Positions 201 through 64,000 of a DNA stretch of 64,000 nt are shown here, in pieces. The notes under the pieces were generated by a model that ran no database searches, was not told where the DNA came from, and saw nothing but the letters and a program-made list of their open reading frames with translations. Numbering within the stretch: position 1 is the first letter of the stretch; each line of letters starts with the position of its first letter. The translations under genes were made by a program, and so were the position numbers. Source of the stretch: Minutocellus sp. GHC0000111 (lineage: Eukaryota); contig OZ361259.1 of NCBI GenBank assembly GCA_977018835.1, positions 992,001 through 1,056,000 on the forward strand, in the 5' to 3' direction.

Positions 201-276
201 CATTAGCAAGAGCACACATCATAATTTCATATAAACATAAAAAGATTGTAAATCACATGGCATCAATAGGACCAAC

Positions 277-2870: not shown

Positions 2871-2874
2871 ACTA

Positions 2875-8140: not shown

Positions 8141-8305
8141 AGAACCGGTTTCGGCCCCAATTTTGGCCTCCTGAAAATAGCTGCTCAGGAATGGCTGACG
8201 AAAAGTAGATCGTAGACAAATTCATGTAAGCTATCTATCCAACCTCAAAACCTTCTCTTTAGATGTTGGCGATTCCGTACAAGTAGAACCGGTCGTATAT
8301 GTATC

Positions 8306-12600: not shown

Positions 12601-14297
12601 GCTTGCCAATGTGACTCAATCGACTCTAGAATTTTAGCTAACCCAGGGCTAACCCCTAACCCCGAAGCCGCAAAAATCTACAACTACTAACCCCCCAAAC
12701 CCAACCCAAACCATCCAATGCTCATCCCATGCACCACAGCTAATATCCCTATCAATCTACTCTACATCCTACACCTCCTTCCCCGTCTATTCTTCCTCCA
12801 ACCCTATCTTCATCCCAATTTTCAACTCAATCAAAAAATCACCCCACCAACACTACCAAACCATGTAAATCTACAACTACTAACTCCCTAACCCTAACCA
12901 TCCAATGCTCATCCCATACACCACAGCTAATATCCCTATCAACCTACTCTACATCCTATTCCTCCTTCCCCGTCTATTCTTCCTCCAACCCTATCTTCAC
13001 CTCCAAACTCCACCACTCAAAATGACGCCACCAACACTACCAAACCATGTAAATCTACAACTACTAACCCCCCAAACCCAACCCAAACCATCCAATGCTC
13101 ATCCCATGCACCACAGCTAATATCCCTATCAATCTACTCTACATCCTACACCTCCTTCCCCGTCTATTCTTCCTCCAACCCTATCTTCACCTCCAAATTC
13201 CACTCAAAATGACGCCACCAACACTACCAAACCATGTAAATCTACAACTGCTAACCCCCCAAACCCAACCCAAACCATCCAATGCTCATCCCATACACCA
13301 CAGCTAACATCCCTATCAATCTACTCTACATCCTACACCTCCTTCCCCGTCTATTCTTCCTCCAACACTAGAGTTTCCTCGCTTCAATTCAGAAGAAGGC
13401 AGAACCGTTCTCTTCCTGAAGGGACAACAGCATCCAGATGGAAGCGGTGATACGTGTTCCTCCCTATCCATCGTTGGAGGAACCGGCTGCTTTCGAGGTG
13501 TTCCCAATAGTCAAGTAATCCTTCGCAGTGGTACCAAATTCCTCTTTGATGACCTGTACCAGCCCTCAGATGATTTGGCCACAAAATTTGTACTCAACTT
13601 GTTTCCTCGTGAGATTCCCGAGCATGGTGACTGCATCGATGATGAAGATTCCGATTATGATTATTATGGTGGTGACTATTATGACTATTATGACTACCAT
13701 GATTATTATCTATAAGAGAGCAATCTTCTTAGTTACTGTTCCTCACTCTTTGTGAAAGTTGATTGCCATGATCACCCAATTAAAAATTGAGACATCTTGC
13801 ATTGCCTACATCCTTATGCTAAAACTAGAACGACCGGAGATCATGCAACCCCAGAGCGAAGCTCCAAATGCAGGTGTTCGAGCCTTCTATGTCGTCCCTG
13901 CTCATGAAGGACCGTTAAGGCTGTTTTTGCATCCACCGATCCTCTTCCCCCGGCGCCCTGGCAGTGTTAAGTTTGAGCTAGTTCAAAAGCCCTGTGTTGA
14001 CCGATATTTTTGTAGTTAGCCGGTTGGCCTCGCGCCGAGAGACTTGAGTCCTTAACTGTCCACCAATCAGTGACATCCCAGCTTCAAGGAAATGTGACTC
14101 CAGTCGCATAGATGGAGACACCACTCACAAAAGTAACCACATGCATGTCCACTTCACCACACATGTGTTCACCTTCGTGTTTGGGCGTCCAGCCTGTAAT
14201 CAACATCTCCCACAGGTTCATCCTACCTAGCCGGGTGGCTTTCCTTTCCGGTTCCGAGGTGGCTTCGTGGCCTCCCAGAGGCGGTGCACCATGCACT
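9624..14297. repeat. Direct segmental duplication, copy B (+686 bp at 11779-12464, +1 satellite unit in 12674-13366)
   Basis: Alignment to 1-3801, confirmed by ORF-track offsets. Confidence 0.97.
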
Positions 14298-28318: not shown

Positions 28319-28652
28319 TACGCTTAATAAGTTGCTGAGACTTATCGGGTAATGAATTGAGTTACTGGGCTCTGAGAGGGTGCGTTAGCGCCCTGAAGTG
28401 AATTAGAAGTTATCAGTAAGTTTGCTCATTACCCGCCATGTCTTGGTAATTTATGAAGGTGATGCTCAACTTGGGGTCATGAAAATTCTTACACCATCTT
28501 GATGCACCAAAATCGCGTAACTCGACCGGGGCCAGTAACACAGAATAATAAAACAACAATGGCTGTAATTTTCATGTCCCAAGTCCAGCATTACGCTTAA
28601 TAAGTTACCGAGACTTATCGGGTAATGAGCTGAGTTGCTGGGCGCTGAGGGT
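28319..28652. repeat. ~270-bp structured non-coding repeat (one full unit plus one partial)
   Basis: Second full copy at 29299-29547. Nested inverted repeats. Confidence 0.85.
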
Positions 28653-29298
28653 GAAGTGACCCCTTCACCTCTTCCTGCTGCTGTCGGAAAGACAGTGTCG
28701 AGCTACAAAGGTGAATTCCGGCATCGTCCGATTTCACTCGTTTTTTCAGAATCCGTAGCAAAAGAAAGAGAAAAGCAAAGAAAAAGTTTTATGTCACTTG
28801 GATTGCATTCCAGCGTTGTTGACACATTAGGGAACGAGTGGCACCTCTGCGTTGAATTTTATTGTGTTTGTTTTGTTTATTAGGAATTATTTTTACACAA
28901 ACACAAGTGCAAGAAGAGAGATTCATTGTGTGCACTTTTGTCCCAAGAGTCACCCTAAGTTATAATTTTATGTTTCAAGTCTTTCCAACTGGTTTAGATA
29001 GTGTTGAGCTACAAAGGTGAATTCCGGCATCGTCGGATTTCACTCGTAGGGGGGTAAAAATGGTGCATGTGCATATTCTTACCTTGACCTATTTGATGTG
29101 CTATGTTGCCTTTTGAGTATCGATTCAAGCAATGGTGAGGATCCTCCTGAACGCAACTGAAGGTTTGCGCCGGAATCTGCATTGTTCTTCAGTAAATGGG
29201 GCCGGGATGAAAGATATTGATAACAATTGTAGCGATAACATGTATTGTAATCGAGAATTAAATGCTCCTCCACTAACAATGTGTGACATGCAAGACAC

Positions 29299-29547
29299 GC
29301 GCTTAATAATTTACCGAGACTTATCGGGTAATGAGCTGAGTTACAGGGCGCTGAGGGTGCGTTAGCGCCCGAAGTTATCAGTAAGCTTGCTCATTACGCG
29401 CCACGTCTTGGAATTTATGAAGGTAATGCTCAACTTGGGGTCATGAAAATTCTTACACCATCTTGATGCATCAAAATCGCGTTGCTCGACCGGAGCCAGC
29501 AACACAGAATAATAAAACAATAATGGCTATAATTTTCATGTCCCAAG
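29299..29547. repeat. Second copy of structured non-coding repeat
   Basis: Aligns to 28319-28584. Confidence 0.85.
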
Positions 29548-29570
29548 CGTAAGTAACTCGCATAAAAACA

Positions 29571-32500
29571 CAGGAGTCAATCTCCTCAAGCAAGCGCTCC
29601 CAACTTTTTGGCTTCATCATCGAATTGGATGACAATGAGAAGCTCCAAGAGAAAATATGGTGGGAACATTCCTTTGCAATGCCTCTGTCCCGACTCTAAA
29701 GATTGTCTCATGAATGGATCACCAGACGTTTGATGAACATAATGGGGACATTTTGAAAGTGAAGAGAGGTCGGTTCAAAAGACTCTTAGAGCTACGTAGC
29801 ACTTGATGCCGCGGAGACGTGTGAGCATTAGTCGGCGGCCGCCATCAATCGTTCAACAACAAGTTTCCATTAAGAATGCATTAAGATTGAGGATGTAGTG
29901 CATGATGGCGCATTTTTATTGCAAAGCACAACTCTGTCGGCATTGGCGTCTTTTCGGTTTCCTCTTTGCTGCAGCGACCCTGTCTCTTTCCCCCCTCTAC
30001 AAACTGCCTCAGAATGGTGGTGCATTCCGGTAGTAGATTCCTTGGAGAAAGGTCCAAGACAGAAGCCCTGTACATCCTGCCACCTACCGGTAGGAAGGAA
30101 CCGCACACCAAGGAAGAGCTACTGACAGAAACTGCTGACACCACTATCGATGACGACCAATTCAAATCTTACACCAATAAATAAATTCAAATACCTCGGT
30201 GCAGTAGCCTTCTTGAGAAGCGAATGGACGACAAAGTTGATGTAAATGGGAGAATCAAGCAAGCCAAAGGCCAATTCCAAGCAATGAGGGAGACAATGAC
30301 GGTGTCAGGCAACAATGCGAAAATGATGGGCAAAAGATGCTACGTAGAAGCAATTGCTACCTAGCTCCTATAATCTACCAAATCTGAGTCTCCTGGGCAG
30401 CAGTGGATGCCGCTCTCTGCTCCTGAGGAATGCTATCATGGGAAACAGATAGATCCAGTAGAAGAAGAAGAATGAGGGCGGATCCAATGGGTCGATCCCA
30501 GCAAGCCGACGAGAAGTCCAACCCATGTGTTACCTCTCAAGTTTCCTTTTCTTTGCACCACTAATTTCTTTCTTCAAAGAAGCAAGTTTGGATGAAAGTT
30601 CCTTAAAAATTGACTCTAAGTCTTTGCATCTTTTCCCTGCATCTTTAATCATGACACTAGCATTGTTCTTGGCCAGATGTGCTAAGAGGTCTTAAAGCTA
30701 AGCTAGATAGACATGCGCAGCTAGTAGAGCTTAACAGGACCTACGTAGATGAAAAATGGGCCATCGCTGATGTCGTTGGACCATGCATCTGCGGTCAGGA
30801 GAGGGCACTGAGTCTGGTCAGACACCCCTGTAGTTCATTCTTCCCTCGTGTTTGAAACAACTCCCGTGAATTTTGTGCCATGCCTTTCCACTTTTTCCCA
30901 ATGAATCGCGTTTTGTTGGCAACCTGTCGATGTTCAGCTTTTACAAATGAAGAACTACCAAAATAGATCTACCCCGTAGCTACTACATAGGAAATAGCAT
31001 ACTACGCAGCAGCTACGTACGTAGCTGGAGCTAGATACGGACAAAACTTTTGAACACACCTGAGCTTTTTCCCACTTCCACGACAATTGCACAAGAAAAC
31101 TCTCCATGTGAGACTTATTGAAAATTTCAAGAGGAATCGAATGAACGTCGGACCAAAAGCGAATTCACTCGAGAAGTTGGTCAAATCGACGAAAAACTGA
31201 AGATGCGGGTGAGTTTCTGAGGCAGATTCGGCATGTTCCCGTTGAAGTGACCGATCTGCTGTCCTCACGACTGTTTTTTGTCCTCGGCCTTCGCCCGACT
31301 CCTCGTCGCTCGCTCTGCCGCATTTCACAAATTGTCGCACGCCATGCGTTGAGTCCTTCTTCGACCAATCATGTGCCAGAAGCAAGCCGCTGGCTTCCCT
31401 TCGCCCCTGTTGCTCTGCGCATGTCGCGGGCACAAACTTTGGCCATTGGCCGTCACTGCACGCCGCTCATCAGCTAGCTCAACTTACTTACACATGCACA
31501 CACTTTCATGTCGATGGAATCATTTTCGCGTCTCGGAAGGAAGAGTTCCATTGAGGCGGATGCACATGCGCCGCTTCCATTTTTTTGTTTCTTTCTCCCA
31601 AGCTGACTTCCATTTGTTTGTGCCAAGAATCGGTTTCCCAAGCGCATTGCAAACATTGCGCCACGTTTCCTTGTCCAAATGGGCAGGCTTTGCAGAAATG
31701 CAAGCTGCGAGATGTTTGCTCTGAAAAACGCTGATTTTGTCGATTGTGGCCGTTCCCGTGTTCTTTGACAGTGCCATCGACATTGCAACGAGCTTTCCAT
31801 GGACATTTCCATCCAGCCATGACTTCTTGTTCAGCTCAAATGCACCAGCAACAATGCCCAGCGGCGGACACAGGATGTCTTCAGCAAAGCCACGAACGTC
31901 TTGAAACATGTGCCAGGCATCATCCTGGTCAGTCATGGTGTCAATGTGCAGGTGAGAAGAAACAAAATGAGGCATTCTTGGTTTGCCTCCCTTCTCATCT
32001 CTGGGTGATCTACACCAGCAATGCGTCACAGTCTCTTGTTGCTTTTCCAACGAAGCGATGGTGACAGAGTCCTCCCAACGGACAATCTTAGGTGACGCAA
32101 AGCTCATGTTGGAAATCATTGATTGAAGATCACTGTCGAACTGATCTGCATGTGCTGCATTTCTTCCAGCTTCCAGGAAACACGGCCTGCTCAACTTCAT
32201 CTCATCACCTCCAAGATGGACAAGGGACTTGCATGGAACATTTCTTCCAGCTCACCCAATGAAGTTTCAAGGACAGACATTAAGCCTGCGTTTTGATGGT
32301 TGAGAGGAATGCCCCAGGAACATTTAATTCAGGCATTACGGAAACTTCCTTTTCGGTGGCAAACTCAATGAGGTGCTTCATTTCGTCCACAGAACACACA
32401 CTGCCACCTGGAACTGATGGTTTTGCTACGTAGTTTAGGACAGGAATCAAACTTCAACATGAGTGATTGATCATCAGTCAACCTGAGATGTAGCAGATTG

Positions 32501-32947
32501 AAACCAAGCTTCGCAATGAAGTCAACAACATCCTTCAAGTCTGAAATGGAAAAATGCACACGAGCAGCATCCACAAGCACCCCAGCATGTTGAACACGTC
32601 GTCGATTGTGATGCATTGGCTCCTTCATGTTGCCGATGTTGGTGTAACTGTCTTGCTACTGTTGTTCGTCTTGACATCAGAACGATTGCATGGGCAGATG
32701 TCAGAGTCGGGACATGCATCAAAGTCAAAACAATCCCAACCATGCTTGTCTTCACTTTTGCGATCTATTCCAAGCTTCTCTTCATTCATCCACATTCCGC
32801 GGTGCGGCTCCAAACATCTTGGCAAACGCTTGCTTGACTGGGATGGTGTCCTGACAGCAAGACCTTGCCCTCCAAGTGGTTGCACGAGAGTGTGTGCCAC
32901 AAGATATTGTCTGGTGACAGCCCAGCCTTTCTCATTTGATTTGTCCT
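29571..32947 (-). repeat. Inverted duplication of 53740-57126 (the hypermutated copy), containing a GT/GH20 pseudogene at 31520-32947
   Basis: Reverse-complement alignment. Endpoints CAGGAGTCAATC and ATTTGTCCT. Confidence 0.95.
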
Positions 32948-33264
32948 GTGTGTCCCGTCCAATTGGACATCCGGCGGCTGGTGTCGCCTCAAAAGGAGTG
33001 TCGTCAACTTCGTCGCCAGGGGCGTCGCACCCTGATGTGTGAAGATGTTCAAAGAGAGAAAATGAGAAAAGTTGAGAAAGTGCAAAAGGAGAAGTTTAGT
33101 AGTTCTTGGGGAATCTGCACTCACCATTGGGCCCTGGATCAAAAGTGTGGCACAGACCAAGCCTGGAATTGGGAATTTGAACGCAACACCAAAGACATGT
33201 AAAAAAGCGCAAGAAAGTGCACAATCACACACATTAGCAGCAGTTAAAAAGCATCAACAAAAAA

Positions 33265-33516
33265 TTACTTGCCAATGACCACTTCGTGGACACATGTGTC
33301 TCCCTCATTGAAAGGCACTGACGGCCCGCCATTCATGGAAGACCACAAGTTCATGACACCATCTTCAGGGTTGTTGGAAGAAGGACCAGGCAATGTGGCC
33401 CATCCCAGTGATCCTTCCACGAGTTCTGTAAAATAAACATTCAATGCAGACTCATTGCCTCGTCTGTGTAGGATCTTGACTGCGCAATCGCTTGTTTGGT
33501 TGTGTAGCTTGCACAA
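33265..33516 (-). pseudogene. Peptidase M43 (pappalysin-like) fragment
   Basis: LNVYF...LGWATLP...DGV...PFNEGDTCVHEV, broken at the HEXXH motif. Confidence 0.75.
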
Positions 33517-34476
33517 CTACGGCACTTTTATTCTACCTTTTCGTGTCTCTGTGCCTCGCACGTGGTGCACCTTGATCAACAGGTGGAGCTGTGCTCGGAC
33601 TTCCAACTCGGACGGGACATTCTTGGATGCGTGGTGGTGTGGATCGCTGCCGTGTCACATGCAGGTGCACAGAGAGGAGTTGGGGCGACGACAAGGAAAG
33701 GCCTGGTGACACACCCGTCTCATCCACGGCCCTTTTTTGTGAGTTGGTGCACAGTGGTGAGTGAACAGGTGGCGGCCGGGGCGCACCTCGGGAGCGGCCG
33801 GAAGGGACCTGCTGCTCTCATTGCACTGCGGCACCCTCATAGATGGTGCACAGTGGTAGAGTGGCCTCAATGGCATGGCCAAAGAGCAGCCCCGGAGTGG
33901 ATGGCAGTGCCGTCCGGTTGGCTTCGCCACGTGTAGTCGGACCATGCCGACAACCATGCGGCGTTGATGTTGATGGATGCGGCCATTTTATGTTGCCGGC
34001 AGGTGGCTGCCGGATGGAAGAACCATGCTAGCATGCTGATAGCGGCGCCCTTAGCTACCAAACTCTCCTACAGCTAGCGCAGTACGGCAGTGTAATAACG
34101 GAGCACTAGCATAGTTAATGGCTACTTGCTTGATTCTGGCATTTGTGTCAACTATGTCGTTCAGTTGCTTCTCAAGCAGGCTGCGGAGGCATTTGAATTC
34201 GTCGGTCCCTACATGTACGTAGGGTAAAATTGGAGAAGCAACAACAACAATTCACGTACGAACTTGTACATGTAGGGCTACTACGAAGTACATGTGACGT
34301 TGATTTGGTCGACACAATCAGGCAATGGGAAGTGGAGAAAGTAAGACGACACATGTGCTGCTTCTTCTGTTTTCGTAGTGCCTCTTAGATTAGTACCGGT
34401 AGGTAACATCTTGCTTTGGTCTCTCTCCATGGGGTATTCTTTATCTATTGCATTTTGATTTTGCCATCAAAAGGTC

Positions 34477-35524
34477 ATGGTAGAACAAAGAAGAACAAGT
34501 GCAATAGTCGCTGCTTTTATTTTTGTTTGTGTTGAATCGGTCAAGGAAGTTTGGCAATTCATTCGTTGTATGCTCAAATGTCACACTGAGCACACAGATA
34601 TCACCAAGGCGGCCAACTCGTGTCCTGTGGGGTATTTTTACTGTTACCTCTGACGTTGTCGAAGCTGAACGGCGGAAGATGTTCCGAAACCTTCTTGCCG
34701 TCGCTCAGAAAAAGACTTGTCCACTTTCAAGGGTTACTGTGGGTTGTGAAATTATTTACACCTTTGTGGTGGGTGGGAAGACCGAGGGAAGGACCTTCAT
34801 CAGACTGCCTAATGTTTCATCCTCGGACTTTTTTTTCTCAAACCAAAACCTTGAGGGAAATAATCGTTCTCTGTCGCGAGGTTTTACGGAAGACAGAAAG
34901 CATGGCGACATTACCTACCTTGACATAGTAGAGAATATGGATTTTGATAAGAGCCCGACATGGTTGGGTTATGCCTCCAGTATCATGCAGGACATGGAGA
35001 TTGATTACGTCGCGAAATTAGACACTGATACTTTACCCCTGCTTGACTTGTACTTTCGCTTTGTGAGTCAAGAACTTCCAAGTCCTGCAGGGTCCCGTCG
35101 GATTATGGCTGGAATCTTGGCCGACACTGTTACCTTCTTCAATCACATCCCTCAGCAACATTACAGAGACCGAGCACACTACATGAAACAAAAATTTGGC
35201 AGCATACCTCCTCATTACTATTTTCGAGGAGAATTTTACCTGCTTTCAAAACAACTTGCCAAAGACGCCTATGAAACTTATGTGACTAACTTCCCTGAGT
35301 TTCCAAATTGGACACGCCGACATGAAGACCAAATCGTGTCCGCCCTGGTCTTCACATCTCAAGGACCCGTGACAACAGTTTTATTGGCAAAGTCAGAGGC
35401 ATTTTGGAAGCATCCAGTTAAACTAGGTGTTGAACAGATCAGCAAATTGCTATGGCTTGAAGAACTCAGTGCCCTTGAACACCGAGTGGGAAGCAACAAC
35501 ATGGTCGAAAAGTCGCTGCGATAA
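34477..35524 (+). CDS. GT31-like galactosyltransferase; probable ATG at 34477 is out of frame (T-run frameshift)
   Basis: TFVVG, HGDITYLDIVENM..KS, DYVAKLDTD, GEFYLLS and HEDQ motifs. Confidence 0.75.
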
Positions 35525-37252
35525 ACTTGACATAATTTTTTCACTCTGTTGAGCGTTCGAACCCCGCCGATTTGGAGTCTTGTGCACAAGCCCCAGAAAG
35601 ATCTGAATTTACTCCGAGCGGTAGCAACCACGTATATGCAATCTGGTTTCATCTGGTCTAAACCATTCCGTGCCTGCAAAAATGAGTGGATGTACGAGAC
35701 AAGAAAGAGTAAGTATATATTGTGGGGGCTTTGGCAGCAGGAATGTTGCACTAAATGCGACATTTCCATAGCTGGTGCAACACTGCCATGGTGAGCTAAA
35801 CATGCAGCTTGAGATTCATGTTGAAAGAAGGAGAGCAGAAGCAAAAGAAAATAAAAAGAATAATGAACGTGAGAACGATAGGAGAATTCCTCATCGCTAC
35901 ATATCGCCGAGGCGACAAGATACTAGGCCTAGTATTGTCAGCACCCATTGACTCCGGTTCATTTTGATCCCGCCTCTCGGTTCTAGTCCCGACTTTTCCC
36001 GCCAAGTTTGTCGGGAGAGATCGGCACTCTTCTTTTCGCATCCTCCAGCTTCTTTTGTCGTAGTAGCTGAGATCGGGATCGGAGAGACGGGCTCTTTACT
36101 GCCTAGATAGCTTTATCTTTACTTTAGCAGGCTTTTAGCCACTAGTCCCGATGCGCGGCATCCTGGCAGTGTCAGGTTGTTCGCTTAATTGCGCACCTTT
36201 GCGGCCGACAAGTCATCGGCATTTGAACTCATCGGTGGTGTGCGTGAATTTGTGCCAAGTTCAACGACGGACCACCAATTCCAACCTTCATCCGGCACGT
36301 TCCGCACCCGAAGAAGGTTCACCGACAACGACATTCGACACGACGCAACCAGCGTCGAACCGAATGACGCATCAATCATGGCCACAGATTGTCTGGCCAT
36401 CACCGTTCACGGCCAGCTCGGCACGACCAAGCTCGGCACACGACGCCTTCGAGTCAGCAGCTTTTTGAACCTGCAGTGCGAAGATGATGGACCCCAGCTT
36501 GCCGGAGCGGACGTCAGCGACCGTCAAGGACTGCGGATGACCCTCATCAACAAGCTCCTACGCAATCCAGTCTGCACTCATCCCAAGACCACTGAGCTTT
36601 TCAAAAATAGCCATCGTTTGCTCCCGAGACTTGGCAACTGCGTGACAAGCATGGCCGCTGGGCTGGTTCTGCACTGCTACAACATCTTCCGATGCTTTTT
36701 CAAGCACGGCACCATCGTTCATCTTGCGCTCAATTTTCACGGCAACGTTTAAGCATGAGGATGCGTTTTCAGATGAGCTCTCCGACACAACTTATTTGGC
36801 AAGTGGTTGAGAGGGCTCTTGGAATGCAAGCCGATCCGATCCGATGTTCCGATGGGAGCACATTGACATTTTCATTGCTGCCAACTCCAAATTGTGCCGC
36901 CACATGGATCATGTGGATGACGACACTGATGGACATGATTACAATTGCGTGCACTCATTCAATTGCTCTTTGGATGGGGCAGATTGCAAAGTGTCTGCAA
37001 TTGTGACCACCAGGGACAGGTTGGCTAGAGCTCTGGACAGTGCAAGGCCGAAGCTGGAGAAGGTGGTGGTGGTGGTGTCGTCCCGCTAAGCATGGCTTAA
37101 GTCTGTCTAATAGAACCCTGTTCGAAAACAGGTAGCCGCACTTGTCACAGCTGCGGGTTGGAAAAACAAAGAACGAAGACGCGTGCGGGTGCGCGCGGGC
37201 GAGAGAAAGGTTTTTCCACTGCTAGCAAGTCTTTTGCGCGTGATTTTACGCT

Positions 37253-38116: not shown

Positions 38117-38807
38117 GAGTCAGAGTGGTAGGAGCGCGAGGACGCTAGGCACGTAGGCGGGGCGGGCCGGTTTGGACCTCGGGAGGATAAAATTTTGCAA
38201 TTTACTATGGGGTTTTGAACAGGAGCGTCACAGACCGTCACCGTAGCGTCCAGCACAAGCCTACACAGCGTTACATGTACATACGGACTGTGACGCCGTA
38301 AAAATGTAAAATGTAGGCGTAGAGTAGGTGCCAAAATCCGGTAAGGTGGTGCACTTTATAGGCGGAGGCACCGGTACTCACACTCCATCAACCCTAGATG
38401 TAGCCACTAGGTAATTGCAACTAGAAGCTAGCGGTGCTAGTTGTTAACCACTACCAAACCCTCATCTGCCCGTCTCAAAAGAGGCGGGACCAATGTGTTT
38501 TTTGGCGGGACTAATGCCATTTACTAGCAGTTTGTTAGCCGCCTTATTTTGTCACTTGGTCGGAGCTCGAAATTTCTTTTGCCTCCCCTTGGCGCCTTCT
38601 CGTCAAAATGAGCAACTCCCAATTTTTGGAGGCAACCACCACACCTAATGCTTCAATTTGCCGCATGAGAGTGGTGGTGGTGGTGGTGTCGTCCCACTAA
38701 GTAGTTGCTTAAATCTGTTTGAACAAAAATCCAAAGTCTCGCACTAGCTAGTTTCACTTGCTTTTACAGCTGGACAGAAAAAAAACCTCACTGTGGTAGA
38801 AATGGCA

Positions 38808-40660
38808 CTAGCTAGTTTCACTTACTTTTACAGCTGGACAGAAAAAAAACCTCACTGTGGTAGAAATGTTCGCGCTCCAACAACTCGGCATCCCGCCGAA
38901 ACTGTTCAAACAACTCGAATCCATTGTCATTCGGAAGACAATCTCGGACTTGGCACTCATTGGAATCCCAAGTAAAGCCTCAAAAAGTGCACAAAGCATG
39001 GCGTGAAACTCCATTGAGGTTGCCACAGGATTTCCCTCTGCTTTGCGCAAAAGAGAAGTGTAGTCAGTTGGAATCCTCAAGTTTTTCTCAGCGACAAAGA
39101 CAGATCTTTCTGTCAGCTTCTCAAAAAAAATCATCACTTGCTGTAGCTGGAAACTCAGAGTTGCTAGTGCTGCGAAAGCACAGTCGAAAGCTGGTGGGGT
39201 TGTTCACATCATCTGGAGAAATTGTTAAGAATGTTGAAGGAGGGCAATACCTCTTAATCATGGCCAACATTGGTCACAGATTGAGCACTTGTCCCCTTTG
39301 CTCCTTTTAGTTCCAAGTCTCTTCCATCCTGAACCAAACTCAGGACAAAACTCCTCCGTGCCACCCCTGCCATCAGTTCCAAGTCTCCCTAGAACTCCTC
39401 CACCGTCACGAACCACAGCCTTTTTCTTCTTGGGCATGAGTGCTTTTGGCAAGTGCTCTAGCAAAATTGTGAAACTCCAAAATGGACCAGAAAGTCACCA
39501 AAGTCGCGAAGTTGCACGCTTGGTCCTGATCCCTCTAACCTCCTGCAAAACTGTGCTCTCTCCAAAAAGTCCTGACTTCCTGATCTCCCCCCAAAAATCA
39601 AGGTGTGCAGTGGCGCTGCTAATCTGTTTTCTGCGGCATGTTTTTCTGGTTTGCGAGAATTTTCTGGAGATGATGAACCCAATGCATCTGGCGAGGCTAG
39701 TGCAACAGTTGTCATTCGCCTCCATAGTGGAAATAGGTGTTTTCAGCCAACTGACATGCTCCAGTTTGCAAAACACAGTGTATGTTTTGATACGTTCATC
39801 CGTCACATGGCCAGTGTGGTGCGCAAGCAATCTCGCCAACAATATTCCAGGAAGCTAAGATAGTCCTGCACATGGACATGTCCATTTCCCACGTAAGCAT
39901 AGTTGTTGATCAAGTTCTGCAATCTGGTGACAAGGGTAGTGACAGCCTCACTGCTCAAAAACTGTGTAGTCTGACAGAATGGCAGATTCACAAGAGGTCA
40001 ACTTCGGTTCATGTAGCATGTAGTTCGTTAAAGTCAAATAATCCCATCAACACATGCAAGGGATTGGGGTGTCGATAAAAGTCAAGAAGGGGAATTTCAA
40101 ACCTAGCTTCAGGCGGAAAGGCCTGCCTGTCGCTATAGTCTTCCAGTGAGAGTTGTGATCCTATGGGTGTGGCGGGTCCCCAGTAGTGTACATTTAGGTG
40201 TTTTCTGTCCAGTGAAACACGTTAGGGTTAGCGTAACATTGATAAATAGGTCGTTTCTGAATTTATTTGCTGTGTCCAGAACGAGGTTGAGAAAGGTAGC
40301 CTCTCTCGACCTGTCAAATAAGAGGTGACGAGATTCCCTCAAGTAATAAAATAAATTTCCCGCCTCAATTTGTGTTGTCAAAATTGCTTCACAAGCTCTG
40401 TTTTGTTCCTCTTCCGTCCACTGCGCCGTGTTGACTAATTAGTTTGCACCATGTGAAAAATCAACTGACGAATAATTCCTTGATGAAGGTGTATCTTTCT
40501 TTTCAATGTAAATGTCGTTTTCGTCAATTATAACATCACACACAAACCGGCATTTGTGCCCTCTTTTTATTTGTCTTGATTATCCACGCCCTGTGTTCTT
40601 CAGAAAAACCTACAATGCGTGGTGCACGTTCGTGCAGTGTGAAAAACTTTTCTTTTTCTG
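38808..40660 (-). mobile_element. Helitron Rep/helicase N-terminal fragments (frameshifted)
   Basis: PPSTFLTISPDDVNNP and NPVATSMEFH...LLGIP resemble Helitron_like_N. Overlaps the homologue at 47036-47927. Confidence 0.7.
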
Positions 40661-41326: not shown

Positions 41327-43693
41327 TCAATTATTCACCTTTTTACAATCAATCAATAAGCCACATCTGAAATCTTCTTTCTTCATGGATCTGACAGCAT
41401 CCACTAGATCCTCAGTTTTTCGTTGAAATTGATGTTCATTGTGTCTGTTCTTTTGTGAAAGGATCTTTCCATATTCACTTAAGTTATGCATCGTTGCAGC
41501 TTTATAAACTGTTGCAACAAAGTCATCAAGATCAACCTCTGATGTCATCCATTGTGCATCATGAGAAAATTGCTCTTCTGTGCCACCTGCTCTTGTTGCC
41601 ACAACTGGAATTGACAAAGCCATTGCTTCCAGAGTATTGAGAGGATATGTCTCTTCTCTCGAGGAACTAATGTGGAGGTTAGCTAGCAGGAGGTACGGAG
41701 CGATGTCAACTTGCTCTGGTATGACCTGAATGGTATCATTCCCCAGCTCCTCCTGTCCGGGTAATATACGTTTGAGGAAAAAGTCTTTGTCAGTTTCCGT
41801 GTCTCCAATCATGAGGAGAACAGCATTGATTCCTCTCTGACGAAGTTCACTGATTGCGGTGATTGCCCAGTGCTGTTGTTTACGCAAACAAATTGTCCCT
41901 ACTGTTGTCACAACAAAAGCATCACTGGGTATCTTTAAGTTCTTTCTTGTGATATTACTTGAAGAGGGACCATCAGTATCATGAAGCTTAGAAAAGCCAT
42001 GTATTGTCGAAAAAGGCACCAGTCCATCAAATCTTTGCCACTGTCGTCGTGCAAGCTCTGAACAGAAGACTATCGCATCAACACTCAAAACTACTTGTCG
42101 TTGTTTAGATTCCGAAGAGATAGCACGAAGACGCTTCCATGAGTTTCCAACTTCTGGTACCCATTCATGAATTACCCAAATCATTTGTGGAGAGTTTTGG
42201 CAGTACCTTGATTGACCAGACAGTGAGAGAATGTCCGCCCAGACGATAGTATTCCACAACACAGTGTCTGGTCGCAAACCTGTCTTGGTTTGCACAATGT
42301 CTTGAATCAAATCAGTTGGGGTAGGACAAGAGAGTTTGGCGCAAGTCCTTTGCTTGAAATGAAGCACATTAGAAATGATCACTTCAACTCCTTCAGCCCA
42401 AAAGTCATGAGACAAGCTTCCATCAGAAGGTGCGATCAAAAATACATTTTCTCCTCTTTGAACTAAGATCTTCGCAACGTGCAAGAGGTAGAGTGGGGCT
42501 CCGGTCCTTGTGAGCTCGTGTGAGACCAGCAAGATAGAAGGTCTACTTTGGTGGAGTATCGTCACTGTTGTGGATAGTGCCAGCGGGTCAGATTTTTCTC
42601 CTTTCAACAGCTGCATGCCTGGGTAGGAACGGCCCTCCTGGTCGATGAATTGTAAGTGAGGGAAACTGATGAGCGATCTGTTCTCAATAATTATCCTACG
42701 TGTAGAAGCGTATGAATCTGACAACAGCGCCGCCCACGTTCTTTCCATAAAATGCATGACCTCGCCGTTTTCATGAATCCGTAGACGTTCCAGAATGCGC
42801 TGCCACACACTGAAGGGGATTTGCTGAATCTTATTAGTACGAACAACAAAATTACCGCCATAACATACTTTGATGAATTCATTATGTTTCAAATGGTCGA
42901 ATTCAGTTGGCCCTAATACGTCTTGTAGGAATCGACACATCGTGCCATTGGCCCTCTTGAAATTTTTGTCTGTCTTCATTGTTTTGTAATTGTCTGCTGA
43001 TGCGTAATACGGTAGACGAAATTTCCAGGTTTCTTGTCGAACATGCCAGTCCATTCCACCTGCATCTGGACGCTGGAGGCAAATAAAAGAGCTGCCTAAC
43101 CTCAGTTGTTGAGAAACTTCTTTCAATGGCAAAAGTAAGTTTCGGATAAAGGTGATCGGGTAATTCATCATCGAATCTTTAAAAAAAAATATATAGTCAA
43201 CTTCGCTTATTTTATTAAAATCAGAAACAATGTGGTAGGTGAATGCCATGTCGTTTCGTCCACGATTTGGTAAGTGATTTATTATGAGTTCAAGGTTCAT
43301 AAACTGTCCAGTCAAGTCAAGATATGGTTCACGTCCACACATGCAATAAATATAAATTTTTCGACTAATGACTTCGGTTGACAATAGGTCTTGTACGCCT
43401 TTTTCAAGCCAGGAAATGTTTTTTTGACAGTAGGCAACGACAATGTCAACCATGAATTTTTTTTTGCTTGTGCTTAAGGACCCTGGCGGATGTTGGAGAG
43501 CTTGCGGGAAAATTTCTTGAAGGTAAATGTTTAGAGCTAATATAGGAATTAGAGCAAAGAGAAGGATAAAGTAAAAGTTTGCGGTACGGCTTGTCTTCAA
43601 CGATATTGAGATAGCCATCTCCTTCATCGCATGGGGAAGGGGGGATTCATTTTGAGGCAGAGCACAATTTGAAGCAGAAGCGAAAACAATCAC
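41327..43693 (-). CDS. Intact 788-aa fusion: TM + DUF3431-like domain + GT4 glycosyltransferase
   Basis: IVVAYC, LPNRGRND..F.YHI, CYGGNF, HFMERTW; then LLVSHELTRTGAP, GTICLRKQQ, ETYPLNTLEAMA..IPVV. Confidence 0.85.
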   Translation of the reverse strand: MIVFASASNCALPQNESPLPHAMKEMAISISLKTSRTANFYFILLFALIPILALNIYLQEIFPQALQHPPGSLSTSKKKFMVDIVVAYCQKNISWLEKGVQDLLSTEVISRKIYIYCMCGREPYLDLTGQFMNLELIINHLPNRGRNDMAFTYHIVSDFNKISEVDYIFFFKDSMMNYPITFIRNLLLPLKEVSQQLRLGSSFICLQRPDAGGMDWHVRQETWKFRLPYYASADNYKTMKTDKNFKRANGTMCRFLQDVLGPTEFDHLKHNEFIKVCYGGNFVVRTNKIQQIPFSVWQRILERLRIHENGEVMHFMERTWAALLSDSYASTRRIIIENRSLISFPHLQFIDQEGRSYPGMQLLKGEKSDPLALSTTVTILHQSRPSILLVSHELTRTGAPLYLLHVAKILVQRGENVFLIAPSDGSLSHDFWAEGVEVIISNVLHFKQRTCAKLSCPTPTDLIQDIVQTKTGLRPDTVLWNTIVWADILSLSGQSRYCQNSPQMIWVIHEWVPEVGNSWKRLRAISSESKQRQVVLSVDAIVFCSELARRQWQRFDGLVPFSTIHGFSKLHDTDGPSSSNITRKNLKIPSDAFVVTTVGTICLRKQQHWAITAISELRQRGINAVLLMIGDTETDKDFFLKRILPGQEELGNDTIQVIPEQVDIAPYLLLANLHISSSREETYPLNTLEAMALSIPVVATRAGGTEEQFSHDAQWMTSEVDLDDFVATVYKAATMHNLSEYGKILSQKNRHNEHQFQRKTEDLVDAVRSMKKEDFRCGLLIDCKKVNN

Positions 43694-44029
43694 ACTTTCC
43701 GGCGAAGCTAGAAACTTTCCAAGGGCCGCGCGCTGCTGCCGTATAAGCCTAGAGATTTAGGAAGCGGGAGGGGATGTAAATTCACTAAAAAAAATGTAGG
43801 GAAGGCAGCGTCGGCCCGTCACATCCAAATCGAAGGTTACGGTGACGACTAATTTACGCGTGCAGAACGCTAACAAAAATTTCAAAGATACCCGGATGTT
43901 TCTCCTCTCATCGAACTCGAAGACAAAAATTCACGGACGAAGTTAGCGTCACGCCATGGCCTCCACTCTCGTCACCATGGAATTTTCTGACTGATGTTGA
44001 CCTTCAACCTTCCGGAGGGTCCATGGCAA

Positions 44030-44270
44030 GGGCATTTGTGGTGGTGCCGGGGACCGCATGAAAGGAATGCTGCACGTTTTTTGCACTGCCATCAGGACGA
44101 ATCGGACTTTTTTAATTGACCATCACAGCGATCGATTACGTTCCCCTCAACAGTGTTCTTCAGGAAAATTGTGTCTCTTGGAATTGGCGACCCGTTGGAG
44201 GTCTGGAAAATATTGACAGCACCGAAATCAATCACATTGATGATCCTGATGATCTTTTCAACTTAGCACT
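44030..44270 (+). pseudogene. Fucosyltransferase-like (GT-B) N-terminal fragment
   Basis: Manual translation GICGGAGDRMKGMLHVFCTAIRTNRTFLID resembles the CGGxGDRxxG motif. Confidence 0.55.
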
Positions 44271-44329
44271 GCCGGCAGCAGAAGGCAGAAGGGAGTCTGT
44301 GCCAACCCGGCGCGCTTCATTGGCCACTC

Positions 44330-45106
44330 GGACGCTTTGCATGCCGACCCGTCGGACCCCGACACCTTGTGGCATGTTGGCGAGGTCGTCCGTCTGCCGG
44401 GTGGGCCTTGCGGTCACACTCCGATCACCCGCGGTGTCATCGTGTGCTGGCCACTGCCTTAAGGGTGCCCTCGACTACGGCACTCACTTCTCGTCGCGGG
44501 GCAATCCTCGTCTCGAAGGCTGTGTCAAGTTTAATCCATCCGTCGAACAGTCTGCCCTTCAGGATCTCAACTCTCTTGACACGTTTGTTCCGTTCACCGA
44601 TGCCAACTGGGGTCCCCAAGACGGCTCGGCGCCCACCGCTGCCAACAAGCATGACAAGATTCCCATTGAGAATCTCCGCTCTGTGTCTGGTTGGATTGCG
44701 CTTCGCGGCGGCGGTCCCATCACCCACGGTTGCGCACGTCAAGGGGACACTGCTCAATCGTCATGCCAAGCCGAGACCCATTCCATCAATGAGTGCACCA
44801 AGGACACTCTTCACCTCCGTCACATTACCCACGATCTTGGGCTCCAGGACACCCAGCGTCCGACCCGGCTCTGGAATGACAATCAGGGTGCCGTTGACTG
44901 GTCTGCTGGTTTCTCTAACCGCAAAATGCGCCATCTTAACATGCGAGAGAACCTCGTTCGGGAGAGCGGTCCCGCTTGCACTCACACCATCGAGGTCGCT
45001 CATGTTCCCGGCAAGTGTAACTTCGCCGACAACTTCACGAAGGAGCAGAAATGTAACGCTGCATTTGCTGCCTCTAGGGACACCTGCATGTGTTCTTTAT
45101 GGGGGG
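44330..45106 (+). mobile_element. Ty1/Copia RT end + RNase H and polypurine tract
   Basis: LKGALDYG, FTDANWG, RSVSGW, SSCQAE, DNQGA, RHLNMRE..VRE, NFADNFTK; GGGGGG immediately before TG. Confidence 0.9.
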
Positions 45107-45426
45107 TGTTTTGGAAGGTCTCTAACCCTATCCCCAATGCGGAGTAGTGATATCTCCTCTTCCGTCTTTCGGCTTGCAGGTTACCGCTGTGATAGTAACT
45201 CATAATTTCATCTTTTATCCTCACCATGAGCTACTAGCCGCTCTCTTCACGTCAGTACGACTATCTCTCTGATACTCATACATCTTCCTATATGAACTCC
45301 GACGATAGTGGAATTCACCTTCGTAACTCGATACTAACTGAACCAGTTGGAAAGACTTGAATCATAAAAATTATAACTTACTACTCCACGGACTACCTAC
45401 TACGTACTACAGACTAGTTATCAACA
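45107..45426 (+). mobile_element. 3' LTR
   Basis: Starts TGTT directly after the PPT and ends AACA. Confidence 0.65.
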
Positions 45427-47927: not shown

Positions 47928-48412
47928 TTGAAACGATAAAACTTATATTATGAGCCCATCTGGGCTTTACATGCTACGACCTTCCTACGTGGTCTGTCCT
48001 TCGTCCGTAAATATGTCCACTTTTATACACTTCGTCCATAAATATGTCCACTTTTATACAACAAGGGGTCCTGCCACCTATAACTCTAAAATTTCTCTCG
48101 AGGAGTACAGTACACATTATCTCCATGTCACCTGAGCAGGCACTTCGGACTGCACCCAACTTCTCCATGTCACCTGAGCAGGCCCTCTAGCGGGACGACA
48201 CCGAAAGCGCAATCGCAAGAATAAAAGAGGTACCCGCCGGATTGACTCGCGTCTGTCGTAAATCTATCATTTTTTTCGGATTGACACTGTCTGTCCATGT
48301 AAACCTCGGTCACTTCCGCTGAAGAGTGCTGAAGATTGGAATCGAATGCTGTAACATTGCTGTAAGACCGCGCTCGTAGACGGGTGCAGGGTAATTCAAA
48401 TGAACTCAGATC

Positions 48413-52749: not shown

Positions 52750-52940
52750 TGTCTTGCACTGTCGTAAGTCACACATGATGTTTACTCATGTGTGCTAGCA
52801 GCACATGCACCTAAACATGTTACATTAGTTGGATTATTTCTTGTACCTACATGTAGCCGTAGCTCTCTACTAACAGCACGTGGGACTACTGCACACAAGT
52901 ACACAGAAGGCCACACAAGTACACAGAAGGCGTATCTTGC
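52750..52940. repeat. Left arm of a ~190-bp inverted repeat; right arm split into 58010-58080 and 59211-59335
   Basis: Reverse-complement matches (CACACATGATGTTTACTCATGTGTGCTAGCAG; CTACTAACAGCACGTGGGACTACTGCACACAAG). Confidence 0.85.
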
Positions 52941-53099
52941 TCTCAACACAACAATTTTTTCATGGCCCGTCTGGAAAAACTCACCGTATTACTGTAGCTG
53001 CAGCTGCGTGAAAAGAGCATGAAAATTTGGAAGATGCATGAAATGCAAAGAGAGATGCAAATGTAAGTAACTTGCACAAAAATAAATGACATCATCATT

Positions 53100-55177
53100 G
53101 TGGCAGCCTTTACTACTTGGGGTGGTGTTGTGGTAGCGTCATACTGTTTCAACAGTAGTAAGTATCTTCTCAACAGTAGCAGCAACAAGCTCGCTTCTGT
53201 AACAACTTCTTTCTGGTTTCCTCAAAATGAAACAAGAACATATGAACATCGCAAACGAAACGTCTTGCAAGATAATAATCTCTTTGCATTCATGATGCGT
53301 GATGCAAATCGGATGGTTGCAATTGATCCTCCATTTGGCATGTACATTTTCAATTACATCAATGTGGATGGTGAGTCCATTCCTGCAAGTAGCAATCAGA
53401 TGCAGCTCTACCTCAATGGGCGCAAGATTGGAGTTGCTCCGTGTGATGAATACTCGATAAGATGCTACAAGGCCAAAATGCTACAAATCTTTCATTATGT
53501 TGCCAATCATGCTCAATCGCAATATTTGTTCTATATGGAATCTGATAATACACTCTGTGTTCCACTCTCCGAGTTGGAGAGAATCGCTAAAACACAATCG
53601 CGGTACTTTGTTGGGACTGGTATTGGTGCCTCTGGTTGGATAATGACTAGACCATTCCTGTTGGACTTCATGGCAAGATATGAAAGTGGCGTTGATGATG
53701 ATGATCGTCCTGATGTTGTTGCATCAAAACTACTAATGGAGGACAAATCAAATGAGAAAGGCTGGGCTGTCACCAGACAATATCTTGTGGCACACACACT
53801 TATGCAACCAATCGGAGGGCAAGGTCTTACTGTCAGGACACCATCCCAGTCAAGCAAGCGTTTGCCAAGATGTTTGGAGCCGCACCGCGGAATGTGGATG
53901 AATGAAGAGAAGCTTGGAATAGATCGCAAAAGAGAAGACAAGTATGGTTGGGATTATTTTGACTTTGATGCATGTCCCGACTCTGATATCTACCCATGCA
54001 ATCGTTCTGATGTCAAAACGAACAATAGTAGCAAGACAGTTACACCAATATCGGCAACATGAAGGAGCCAATGCATCATAATCGACGTGTTCAATATGCT
54101 GGGGTACTTGTGGATACTGCTCGTGTGTATTTTTCCATTTCAGACTTGAAGGATGTTGTTGACTTCATTGCGAAGCTTGGTTTCAATCTGCTACATCTCA
54201 GGCTGACTGATGATCAATCATTCATGTTGAAGTTTGATTCCTATCCTAAACTACGTAGCAAAACCATCAGTTCCAGGTGGCAGTGTATATTCTGTGGACG
54301 AAATGAAGCACCTCATTGAGTTTGCCACCGAAAAGGAAGTTTCCGTAATGCCTGAATTAAATGTTCCTGGGGCATTCCTCTCAACCATCAAAACGCAGGC
54401 TTAATGTCTATCCTTGAAACTTCATTGGGTGAGCTGGAAGAAATATTCCATACAAGTCCCTTATCCATCTTGGAGGTGATGAGATGAAGTTGAGTAGGCC
54501 GTGTTTCCTGGAAGCTGGAAGAAATGTAGTAGATACAGATCAGTTCGACAGTGATCTTCAATCAATGATTTCCAACATGAGCTTTGCGTCACCTAAGATT
54601 GTCCGTTGGGAGGATTCTATCACCATCGCTTCGTTGGAAAAGCAACAAGAGACTGTAACAAGAGACTGTGACGCATTACTGGTATAGATCACCCAGAGAT
54701 GAGAAGGGAGGCAAACCAAGAATGCCTTATTTTGTTTCTTCTCACCTGTATATTGACACCATGACTGACCAGGATGATGCCTGGCACATGTTTCAAGACG
54801 TTCGTGGCTTTGCTGAAGACATTCTGTATCCGCCGCTGGGCATTATTGCTGGTGCATTTGAGCTGAATAAGAAGTCATGGCTGGACAGAAATGTCTATGG
54901 AAAGCTCGTTGCAATGTCGATGGCACTATCAAAGAACACGGGAACGGCCACAATCGACAAAATCAGCGTTTTTCAGAGCAAATATCTCGCAGCTTGCATT
55001 TCTGCAAAGCCTGCCCATTTGGACAAGGAAACGTGGCGCAATGTTTGCAATGCGCTTGGGAAACCGATTCTTGGCACAAACAAATGGAAGTCAGCTTGGG
55101 AGAAAGAAACAAAAAAATGGAAGCGGCGCATATGCATCCGCCTCAATGGAACTCTTCCTTCCGAGACGCGAAAATGA
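53100..55177 (+). pseudogene. GT-A-like domain followed by GH20 beta-hexosaminidase domain, frameshifted
   Basis: YLFYMESDN and GTGIGASG; then YAGVLVDTARVYF..LHLRLTDDQSF..SYPKL, PELNVPG and HLGGDE. 13-bp duplication at ~54645-54670. Confidence 0.85.
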
Positions 55178-57126
55178 TTCCATCGACATGAAAGTGTGTG
55201 CATGTGTAAGTAAGTTGAGCTAGCTGATGAGCGGCGTGCAGTGACGGCCAATGGCCAAAGTTTGTACCCGCGACATACGCAGAGCAACAGGGGCGAAGGG
55301 AAGCGCCCCAGCGGCTTGCTTCTGGCACATGATTGGTCGAAGAAGGACTCAACGCATGGCGTGCGATAATTTATGAAATGTGGTAGAGCGAGCGACGAGG
55401 AGTCGGGCGAAGGCCGAGGACAAAAAATAGTCGTGAGGACAGCAGATCGGTCACTTCAACGGGAACATGCCGAATCTGCCTCAGAAACTCACCCGCATCT
55501 TCAGTTTTTCGTCGATTTGACCAACTTCTCGAGTGAATTCGCTTTTGGTCCGACGTTCATTCGATTCCTCTTGAAATTTTCAATAAGTCTCACATGGAGA
55601 GTTTCCTTGTGCAATCGTCGTGGAAGTGGGAAAAAGCTCAGGTATGTTCAAAAGTTTTGTCCGTAGCTAGCTCTAGCTACGTACGTAGCTGCTGCGTAGT
55701 ACGCTATTTCCTATGTAGTAGCTACGGGGTAGATCTATTTTGGTAGTTCTTCATTTGTAAAAGCTGAACATCGACAGGTTGCCAACAAAACGCGATTCAT
55801 TGGGAAAAAGTGGAAAGGCATGGCACAAAATTCACGGGAGTTGTTTCAAACACGAGGGAAGAATCAACTATAGGGGTATCCGACCAGACTGCCCTCTCCT
55901 GACCGCAGATGCATGGGCCAACGACATCAGCGATGGCCCATTTTTCATCTATGTAGGTCCTATTAAGCTCTACTAGCTACGTATGTCTATCTAGCTTAGC
56001 TTTAAGACCTCTTAGCACATCTGGCCAAGAACAATGCTAGTGTCATGATTAAAGATGCAGGGAAAAGATGCAAAGACTTAGAGTCAATTTTTAAGGAACT
56101 TTCATCCAAACTTGCTTCTTTGAAGAAAGAAATTAGTGGTGCAAAGAAAAGGAAACTTGAGAGGTAACACATGGGTTGGATTTCTCGTCGGCTTGCTGGG
56201 ATCGACCCATTGGATCCGCCCTCATTCTTCTTCTTCTACTGGATCTATCTATTTCCCATGATAGCATTCCTCAGGAGCAGAGAGCGGCATCCACTGCTGC
56301 CCAGGAGACTCAGATTTGGTAGATTATAGGAGCTAGGTAGCAATTACTTCTACGTAGTATCTTTTGCCCATCATTTTCGCATTGTTGCCTGACACCGTCA
56401 TTATCTCCCTCATTGCTTGGAATTGGCCTTTGGCTTGCTTGATTCTCCCATTTACATCAACTTTGTCGTCCATTCGCTTCTCAAGAAGGCTACTGTACCG
56501 AGGTATTTGAATTAATTTATTGGTGTAAGATTTGAATTGGTCGTCATCGATAGTGGTATCAGCAGTTTCTGTCAGTAGCTCTTCCTTTGTGTACGGTTCC
56601 TTCCTACCGGTAGGTGGCAGGATGTACAGGGCTTCTGTCTTGGACCTTTCTCCAAGGAATCTACTACCGGAATGTACCACCATTCTGAGGCAGTTTGTAG
56701 AGGGGGGAAAGAGATAGGGTCGCTGCAGCAAAGAGGAAACCGAAAAGACGCCAATGCCGACAGAGTTGTGCTTTGCAATAAAAATGCGCCATCATGCACT
56801 ACATCCTCAATCTTAATGCATTCTTAATGGAAACTTGTTGTTGAACGATTGATGGCGGCCGCCGACTAATGCTCACACGTCTCCGCGGTATCAAGTGCTA
56901 CGTAGCTCTAAGAGTCTTTTGAACCGACCTCTCTTCACTTTCAAAATGTCCCCATTATGTTCATCAAACGTCTGGTGATCCATTCATGAGACAATCTTTA
57001 GAGTCGGGACAGAGGCATTGCAAAGGAATGTTCCCACCATATTTTCTCTTGGAGCTTCTCATTGTCATCCAATTCGATGATGAAGCCAAAAAGTTGGGAG
57101 CGCTTGCTTGAGGAGATTGACTCCTG
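53740..57126 (+). repeat. Inverted duplication partner of 29571-32947 (less mutated copy)
   Basis: Alignment. Confidence 0.95.
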
Positions 57127-63999: not shown

Positions 64000-64000
64000 A

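Follow-up and report, generated by a model that had tools for sequence, protein, structure and literature searches.

An inverted pair of 3.4 kb segments, of which one member has been hypermutated at TpA dinucleotides, lies in a 64,000-nucleotide stretch of contig OZ361259.1 of Minutocellus sp. GHC0000111 (GCA_977018835.1, positions 992,001 to 1,056,000), here called the window. The two segments, 29568-32947 (copy A) and 53740-57129 (copy B), are 96.8% identical in a self-comparison of the window. Relative to copy B, copy A displays a polarised, TAY-specific transition bias that affects both strands, is regional, spares the partner copy and increases in a gradient along the hypermutated one (Y, pyrimidine; R, purine). 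The cause may be an adenine deaminase of the host that attacks DNA in a patch of silenced chromatin. Judged from sequence, the process would belong to a known kind, the same signature having already been described in the alga Bigelowiella natans. It is not repeat-induced point mutation (RIP).

Substitution spectrum

The alignment of A with B comprises 3397 columns, 24 of them gap columns produced by four indels. Among the 86 substitutions, 69 replace A/T in B by G/C in A, seven are G:C to A:T changes and ten are transversions. B contributes 144 aligned TA dinucleotides, of which 84 are kept; A carries CA at 32, TG at 27, CG at one and AA at one, and one more falls at a gap. The TpA changes are thus almost all transitions (60 dinucleotides to TG, CA or CG, as against a single one to AA), and the 59 changes to TG or CA together with the one to CG amount to 61 adenine events in A. 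Sites at which TA in A faces TG or CA in B number zero.

With both strands counted, 61 of 291 adenines preceded by T were changed, compared with 8 of 1550 other adenines (Fisher p = 1e-42), an enrichment of TA context that goes beyond general GC-biased conversion. The 3′ base matters as well: 57 of 156 TAY sites were changed but only 4 of 135 TAR sites (p = 8e-14), the individual contexts being TAT (33/75), TAC (24/81), TAG (2/82) and TAA (2/53). TAY followed by G was the least-hit TAY class (9/35). The strands are balanced, with 28 events on + and 33 on −, and strand runs along A were as frequent as expected (31 against 31.3). Adenines preceded by A were changed at 4 of 562 sites, 30-fold below the TA rate, T to C changes at TpC (A after G on the opposite strand) at 1 of 481, and ApT sites without a 5′ T account for four of the eight non-TA events.

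The TpA events represent 61 of the 69 A:T to G:C changes and 71% of all substitutions. A preliminary description of the window had stated that the copies differ almost only at TA; the excess at TA is indeed far beyond chance, but 25 of the 86 substitutions and the four indels are of other kinds. Its count for 54059-54319 against 32365-32628 proved exact (10 substitutions, 8 at TA, 9 of the A:T to G:C type, 4 of 12 TA sites kept), and its remarks that the changed adenine lies mostly in TAT or TAC and that both strands of the same copy are hit hold over the whole alignment. As for the other changes, four of the seven G:C to A:T changes of A are at CpG sites (p = 0.019), a weak hint that copy A is methylated. 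A also bears the derived base at all seven informative non-TA sites (p = 0.016), perhaps as a result of error-prone repair or of selection acting on the open frame of B. Clustering of non-TA changes near TA hits was not significant (8 against 4.7 by chance, p = 0.085).

Direction of change

Polarity was assessed with fourteen close paralog proteins, with the exclusion of P0024, which is 100% identical to the frame of B. These proteins inform 24 of the 61 TA sites; at 23 of them the base of B comes out as ancestral, the votes over all sites being 80 against 6, and the single TA site favouring A does so by 3 votes to 2. The tyrosine of the GWDYF motif, which is cysteine in A, is present in each of 10 distant homologs, and a solved GH20 structure retains tyrosine at two of the three motifs on which the preliminary description had relied. 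At positions 31714, 32395, 32397 and 32858 all family contigs carry the TA allele, and the reading frame of B is open across the overlap. Taken together, the paralog votes, the distant homologs and the family contigs indicate that TA is ancestral and A derived, as first proposed, and hence that RIP of B does not explain the pattern. The 99 pattern matches of a metagenome scan with paralog P0032 included no relative, so that the polarity is founded on proteins and on the allele tables of contigs and not on paralog DNA. Read in reverse, the pair would present C to T changes at 60 of 569 CpA sites against 9 of 1014 elsewhere, which is RIP-like.

Support from public sequencing runs

The preliminary description had proposed that the bases be compared with reads. 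Twenty of the 24 rows of public sequencing runs (7 studies) hold the stretch or part of it, and alleles were compared in the contigs of six runs. The derived allele of A is present in these contigs at 18 of the 61 sites: eight alleles come from the Illumina libraries X3 and X7, which belong to two studies, six from X5 and four from X10, the library type of X5 and X10 not being on record and X1 and X10 possibly being the source sample of the window. Contigs of X3 and X7 show no difference from A over 30419-30880 and 30431-30765, and X3 carries the base of A at 29808 and 30022. Those of X5 match A at 100% likeness over 32035-32099, 32119-32184 and 32365-32423, at a depth about that of the unique flank, and those of X10 do so over 31287-31364 and 31536-31633, although the allele at 31565 could belong to a paralog. 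The remaining 43 derived alleles were not seen in the contig pieces listed, and the best runs contain 0.46-0.49 of the words of A, about the 0.51 that A shares with B. However, contigs collapse variants in a multi-copy family, so that unseen alleles are expected and are not evidence of absence. A basecalling or assembly artefact is therefore unlikely, and the bases can be regarded as real.

Targeting of one copy and its flank

TA-sensitive codons are changed at 15 of 25 positions in A, compared with 4 of 268 over 13 paralog proteins (p = 2e-15). In the lineage of B, a codon reading points to about three probable older hits (53511, 54155 and 54363) among 25 differences from the family majority. 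Within A, the hit rate is about 3 times higher in 31068-32947 than in 29571-31067, and it climbs towards 32947 in each context class: from 9/14 to 20/21 for RTAY, from 6/24 to 18/25 for mixed contexts and from 1/27 to 5/9 for CTAC/GTAG (within-class p 0.002-0.03). YTAR sites are nearly immune in A (1/25). The observed/expected ratio (o/e) of TpA is 0.14 in 31068-32947, as against 0.44 in the counterpart in B and 0.57 in 13 long open reading frames (ORFs) of the window, and the low-TA zone runs on to about 34030, through flanking sequence that occurs only once in the window. Since B is as repeated as A yet nearly spared, and since the unique flank is also TA-poor, position or chromatin fits better than repeat pairing; the sequence pattern would fit a patch of DNA that was marked, rather than two repeats that were paired. 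The name 'inverse RIP' given in the preliminary description thus suits the chemistry but not the targeting.

Tracts rich in CTAC, GTAG, CTAG and TACGTA, the most resistant contexts, occur between genes at 30700-31060, 34030-34300 and 52640-52870, and the second of these borders the end of the TA-poor zone at about 34030. Four intact-looking glycosyltransferase-type genes (8216-9592, 34508-35524, 41327-43756 and 48404-49516) have kept their TAY sites; Pfam assigned three of the four to GT4, GT25 and galactosyltransferase families, and the gene at 34508-35524 is separated from the TA-poor zone by about 500 bases.

Structure and gene content of the pair

The features of the pair and its surroundings are collected in Table 1. 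The likeness of A and B ends abruptly at 29571/57126 and 32947/53740. The 331-codon frame begins 670 bases outside the duplicated segment, so that A contains just its 3′ part, followed by the GH20 piece (PF00728). This arrangement, with lesions common to both copies, makes B source-like, and the shared frameshifts and deletion imply that both GH20 pieces were already broken.

Table 1. Principal features of the duplicated pair and related sequences (positions in the window)
Feature	Position	Strand	Remarks
Copy A, 3.4 kb inverted duplication	29571..32947	−	Hypermutated member, 61 A>G at TpA relative to B
Copy B	53740..57126	+	Source-like partner; ancestral TA sites retained
Heaviest-hit part of A	31068..32947	−	20/21 RTAY and 18/25 mixed-context sites changed; TpA o/e 0.14
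GH20 (beta-hexosaminidase-like) pseudogene piece of A	32027..32637	−	Y>H, Y>C, I>V, I>M and T>A at TA codons
A-side flank beyond duplication	32948..34030		TA-poor, TpA o/e 0.30, zero RTAY sites
Open 331-codon frame, uncharacterised diatom protein family	53067..54062	+	Start outside duplicated segment
GH20 pseudogene piece of B	54050..54660	+	PF00728, E 9e-15; frameshifts and deletion common with A
Copia-type retrotransposon, RNase H-region fragment	44116..45147	+	TpA o/e 0.32, 1 RTAY site; unpolarised

Pfam gave no match for the 331-codon frame, and its named homologs are from Seminavis robusta and Nitzschia inconspicua only (2 of 22 hits), which makes a pennate diatom the likely host. The family is multi-copy: it forms a cluster of 45 members, 15 of which are among the matches listed, and its summed contig depth is several times that of the flank. 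No longer homolog of the C-terminal frame of B was found among 242 candidates. The flank of A, for its part, is matched without difference by contigs of runs X1 and X5, and a search for longer homologs of its peptide yielded none among 3 candidates. An old inverted repeat (53702-53860/57101-57253, about 70% identity over 164 columns) flanks copy B on either side; its arms contain the two segment ends, and it may have determined the breakpoints. No evident bounding terminal repeats or target-site duplication were seen around A and its flank, and Rfam gave no match anywhere in the window.

Several minor elements were noticed in the vicinity. A degenerate piece at 33105-33516 (−) resembles M43 (pappalysin/ulilysin) metallopeptidases but is a lead only: Atlas gave 0.91 to a cluster with 43% PF05572, PDB matches had E about 1 only and there was no Pfam hit. 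A cysteine occupies the place of the tyrosine of the M43 family motif, which would be a further TA hit. Short pieces at 30184-30263, 34125-34199 and 56434-56513 (Atlas leads of 0.86-0.87 only, no Pfam hit) resemble the tail of a reverse transcriptase of non-long-terminal-repeat elements. Finally, a short non-coding repeat (28321-28667 and 29300-29547) that adjoins the left end of A is possibly a miniature transposon; it contains inverted arms, occurs in three partial copies and has a high contig depth.

The signature elsewhere

Across 18 other repeat pairs of the window, TAY sites differed at 44 of 342 positions and TAR sites at 18 of 412 (p = 3e-5). Further TA-poor islands occur at 1001-2150, 3950-4550, 10500-12500, 36100-37050, 38800-40000, 50900-52500, 58100-59300 and 63000-64000; their TpA o/e is 0.17-0.34 and mostly 0-1 RTAY sites remain while YTAR survives, but they are unpolarised. 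In a 2155-base direct repeat (1-2155/9624-11778), 0 of 62 TA sites differ, although this repeat may be too young to be informative. It is part of a near-identical direct duplication (1-3801 and 9624-14297) consisting of the 2155 bases at 99.9% followed by a 180-190-base tandem unit, which may be very young or an assembly duplicate. Between 2154-2874 and 12463-13183, three of four differences oppose TA to TG or CA, in both directions.

The piece at 44116-45147 was identified as Copia by its homolog P0050, which bears rve and RVT_2. Its 648-base conserved part has zero RTAY sites, whereas at least 3 are present in 80 of 80 related metagenome loci; TpA o/e in these loci, whose hosts are not named, has a minimum of 0.22 and a median of 0.86. 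In 31 alignments among them, differences between TA and TG/CA make up at most about 17% of substitutions, save in two tiny cases, which argues that the signature is not general to these elements. One pair of loci with 98.8% identity (L010 and L012) has TA changes polarised 6:1, six of seven in TAY, among 60 substitutions, possibly a weak version of the signature elsewhere.

Proposed mechanism and alternatives

The explanation that we favour, with a probability of about 0.5, is that a DNA adenine deaminase of the host worked on a patch of silenced chromatin and thereby hypermutated copy A. Copy A would have been inserted in or beside silenced DNA, from which a mark would cover about 31000-34030 and, more weakly, extend to 29571. 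An enzyme recognising 5′-T-A-Y would then turn adenine into hypoxanthine, which is copied as guanine, through many separate events on either strand rather than one pass along one strand. The outcome would be the erosion of tyrosine, isoleucine, threonine and valine codons in repeats and gene debris, acting as genome defence. Both deamination as the chemistry of the change and the defence role are what we infer from the pattern. Adenine deamination would yield pure A to G changes with a 5′ T rule, as proposed by the authors of the B. natans study, and the hypermutable region derived from a nucleocytoplasmic large DNA virus (NCLDV) in that alga is single-copy, as the TA-poor flank of A is within the window. 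If B. natans rates applied, the changes at 21% of TA adenines would correspond to about 4e4 generations and the 25 other changes in 3373 bases to about 1e7; by this analogy, a brief episode would be enough, although a slow process with a 40-fold TA excess would account for the changes equally well. A broader version, in which a diatom DNA adenine editor with a 5′-TAY rule is guided by silenced chromatin and not by pairing, moves outwards from where it nucleates to adjacent gene copies and belongs to an old genome-defence pathway of stramenopiles, alveolates and rhizarians, common to the rhizarians and constituting the A-to-G counterpart of RIP, is tentative and, as a whole, less likely than not; such an editor would be a natural source of a DNA adenine deaminase.

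Several observations weigh against this explanation. A base-pair change alone cannot separate A to G from T to C on the opposite strand, and a modified T at RTA would fit the sequences equally. The hits are not coordinated by strand, as they would be with a processive deaminase of single strands. TAT is no less affected than TAC, and TAY sites with a following G are the least affected of their class, whereas the motif listed for TadA/ADAT2 is 5′ACG; with UAG least hit and ACG not specially favoured, a deaminase would need a specificity of its own. Copy A was already a broken gene piece, which leaves a defence role conjectural. The contrast between 15/25 and 4/268 sensitive codons was drawn with a 90%-identity cluster of called ORFs, in which heavily hit paralogs are under-sampled and intact copies favoured. 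An amino-acid reversion test on the Copia piece explained 2 of 20 differences (97 conserved columns, with homologs too distant), and in unbiased 500-base bins the ratio of RTAY to YTAR was 26:52 in low-TA bins against 248:309 in other non-ORF bins, a difference short of significance (p = 0.068); neither test supported a wider claim.

Alternatively, a silencing mark on T (or A) at RTA/TAY of repeats may itself be mutagenic, for example an oxidised T that pairs with G, so that TpA would decay slowly as methylated CpG does. Changes on both strands, the absence of strand runs, the grading by position and the affected flank are all expected of mark-driven decay, and 5-hydroxymethyluracil (5hmU), made by TET/JBP enzymes, marks repeats in dinoflagellates, with a preference for TA and TC in C. 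cohnii (PMC11572971). However, the near-absence of changes at TpC contradicts this TA plus TC rule, the available text of that article does not mention diatoms, and the B. natans process, as reported in its available text, is active in some of the lines only, as would suit an inducible enzyme. Eukaryotic N6-methyladenine (6mA) lies in ApT. A mark of the latter type would be expected to affect ApT without a 5′ T, which is barely hit. This explanation seems unlikely, though less so than those that follow. A polymerase of the Pol eta type could also insert G opposite T at TA while filling repair or late-replication gaps in heterochromatin; it mutates WA hotspots (W, A or T), TA to TG included, according to the parts consulted of PMC7884765 and PMC9723645, and both the derived bases at the seven informative non-TA sites and the slight proximity of non-TA changes to TA hits would accord with error-prone synthesis. 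The 30-fold gap between AA and TA, the near-absence of transversions at TA and the near-immunity of TAA and TAG nevertheless make it improbable.

The other candidates fare worse. GC-biased gene conversion, or copying from an already changed paralog, would account for the 69 of 86 changes that raise GC and could draw on a multi-copy family, but it has no TpA or TAY context and requires a donor, while the paralog proteins have the residues of B, all family contigs carry TA at the four positions given above, and a hit donor would merely relocate the question. The context test comes close to refuting it, and it was rejected as very improbable. Ordinary RIP or methyl-C decay of B (CA to TA, TG to TA), with A ancestral, could be invoked from the reversed spectrum, from the one site that favours A and from the DNMT4 relatives of RID reported, in the sources seen in part, to be encoded by diatoms; it is opposed by the paralog proteins, which favour B at 23 of 24 sites and with 80 of their 86 votes, by the tyrosines kept in distant homologs and solved GH20 structures, and by the open frame of B. 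Short of identical hits in every paralog and distant homolog, the outgroups reject it, and it can scarcely be entertained. Errors at modified bases are equally hard to credit: although 43 derived alleles were not in the listed contig pieces and word sharing with the best runs is no higher than with B, the alleles recovered in contigs at 18 of 61 sites, eight of them in Illumina libraries of two studies, led to rejection. Editing of the ADAR type was likewise rejected, owing to the rarity of changes in the UAG context (2/82), the involvement of both strands and the lack of strand runs.

Significance

What is new at this locus is the host-gene duplicate as target, the targeting of one copy with a gradient into unique flank, the TAY rule, and the support from outgroups and reads. 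In the literature searched, targeted A:T to G:C mutation of genomic DNA is otherwise found only in one rhizarian alga, where the enzyme is only proposed. With a further lineage, a target that is a host gene and a sharply defined TAY rule, there is now a fingerprint for screening candidate enzymes, and diatoms are editable. If a deaminase were responsible, it would constitute a DNA adenine editor of natural origin; if a mutagenic base mark were, it would represent a new epigenetic base in diatoms. Either cause would distort the dating of repeats, the GC content and the annotation of pseudogenes in diatom genomes with the signature.

Comparison with known systems

Adenosine deaminases of the TadA, ADAT2-ADAT3 and ADAR families share with the present process the A to G outcome and the preceding T or U. 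The preliminary description held that TadA-type enzymes prefer T-A-Y; this could not be confirmed, since a review table lists 5′ACG for TadA/ADAT2 (PMC10661471, seen in part) and a literature search found nothing more specific. According to the same source these enzymes act on tRNA, whereas DNA is affected here, on both strands and at TAT as much as at TAC (33/75 and 24/81, with 9/35 for TAY followed by G), and the 5′UAG preferred by ADAR is the least-hit context. Pol eta has in common with copy A the A to G and T to C changes at TA but differs in its AA hotspot, almost untouched here (4/562), and in the strong influence of the 3′ base. Dinoflagellate 5hmU shares the association with repeats and the reported preference for TA; however, it includes TC, which is spared here (1/481), and the parts of the article seen report silencing and not hypermutation (PMC11572971).

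RIP of ascomycetes (RID/DIM-2) mutates both copies of a duplication. It resembles the present process in its dinucleotide-specific transitions on both strands, involving CpA, TpG and TpA, and in the wrecking of repeats. In copy A, however, TpA is lost and not made, as TA is ancestral at 23 of 24 sites and the direction is not C:G to T:A; only one of the two copies is hit, with 61 events in A and none in B relative to A; and unpaired flank is included. In diatoms, repeats bear DNMT5-dependent CG methylation, and DNMT4 relatives have no assigned function, as far as the parts seen of the cited literature go (further papers cited are PMC9998398 and PMC11884799, also seen in part). No diatom report of TpA hypermutation was found in the literature searched, most subscription papers being outside reach, nor was any TpA mention found in the accessible text on the atypical mutation spectrum of Prasinoderma coloniale.

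The closest parallel, and one that contradicts the earlier remark that no such system had been described, is the hypermutation at TpA reported for NCLDV and virophage DNA integrated in B. natans (Mettrop et al., bioRxiv 10.64898/2026.01.13.699255, consulted in part). In mutation-accumulation lines, 230 of 231 mutations in two virus-derived regions were A to G or T to C, all at TpA, at about 1000 times the background rate and in some lines only; the authors propose adenine deamination, with an ADAT2-like candidate that is unproven, and extend the signature to transposon and other sequences. The word 'diatom' is absent from the text consulted. Here the host is likely a pennate diatom, a stramenopile and not a rhizarian, the evidence is historical and not de novo, and the target is not of viral origin but a duplicated GH20 pseudogene with part of a diatom gene family; moreover, a 3′ pyrimidine rule was measured, whereas the preprint text gives none, its figures and supplements being outside the comparison. 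As to the features in common, A:T to G:C changes dominate (69 of 86) over a background of older or ordinary changes and are confined largely to TpA (61 of 69), giving TpG or CpA according to strand, with both strands affected. Both processes are regional, leave tracts poor in TpA and rich in CpA and TpG, and need no paired second copy, and ordinary genes are spared, as seen here from the TpA o/e (0.14 against 0.57) and the sensitive codons (15/25 against 4/268). By analogy, the process that altered copy A would work like the TpA process of B. natans.

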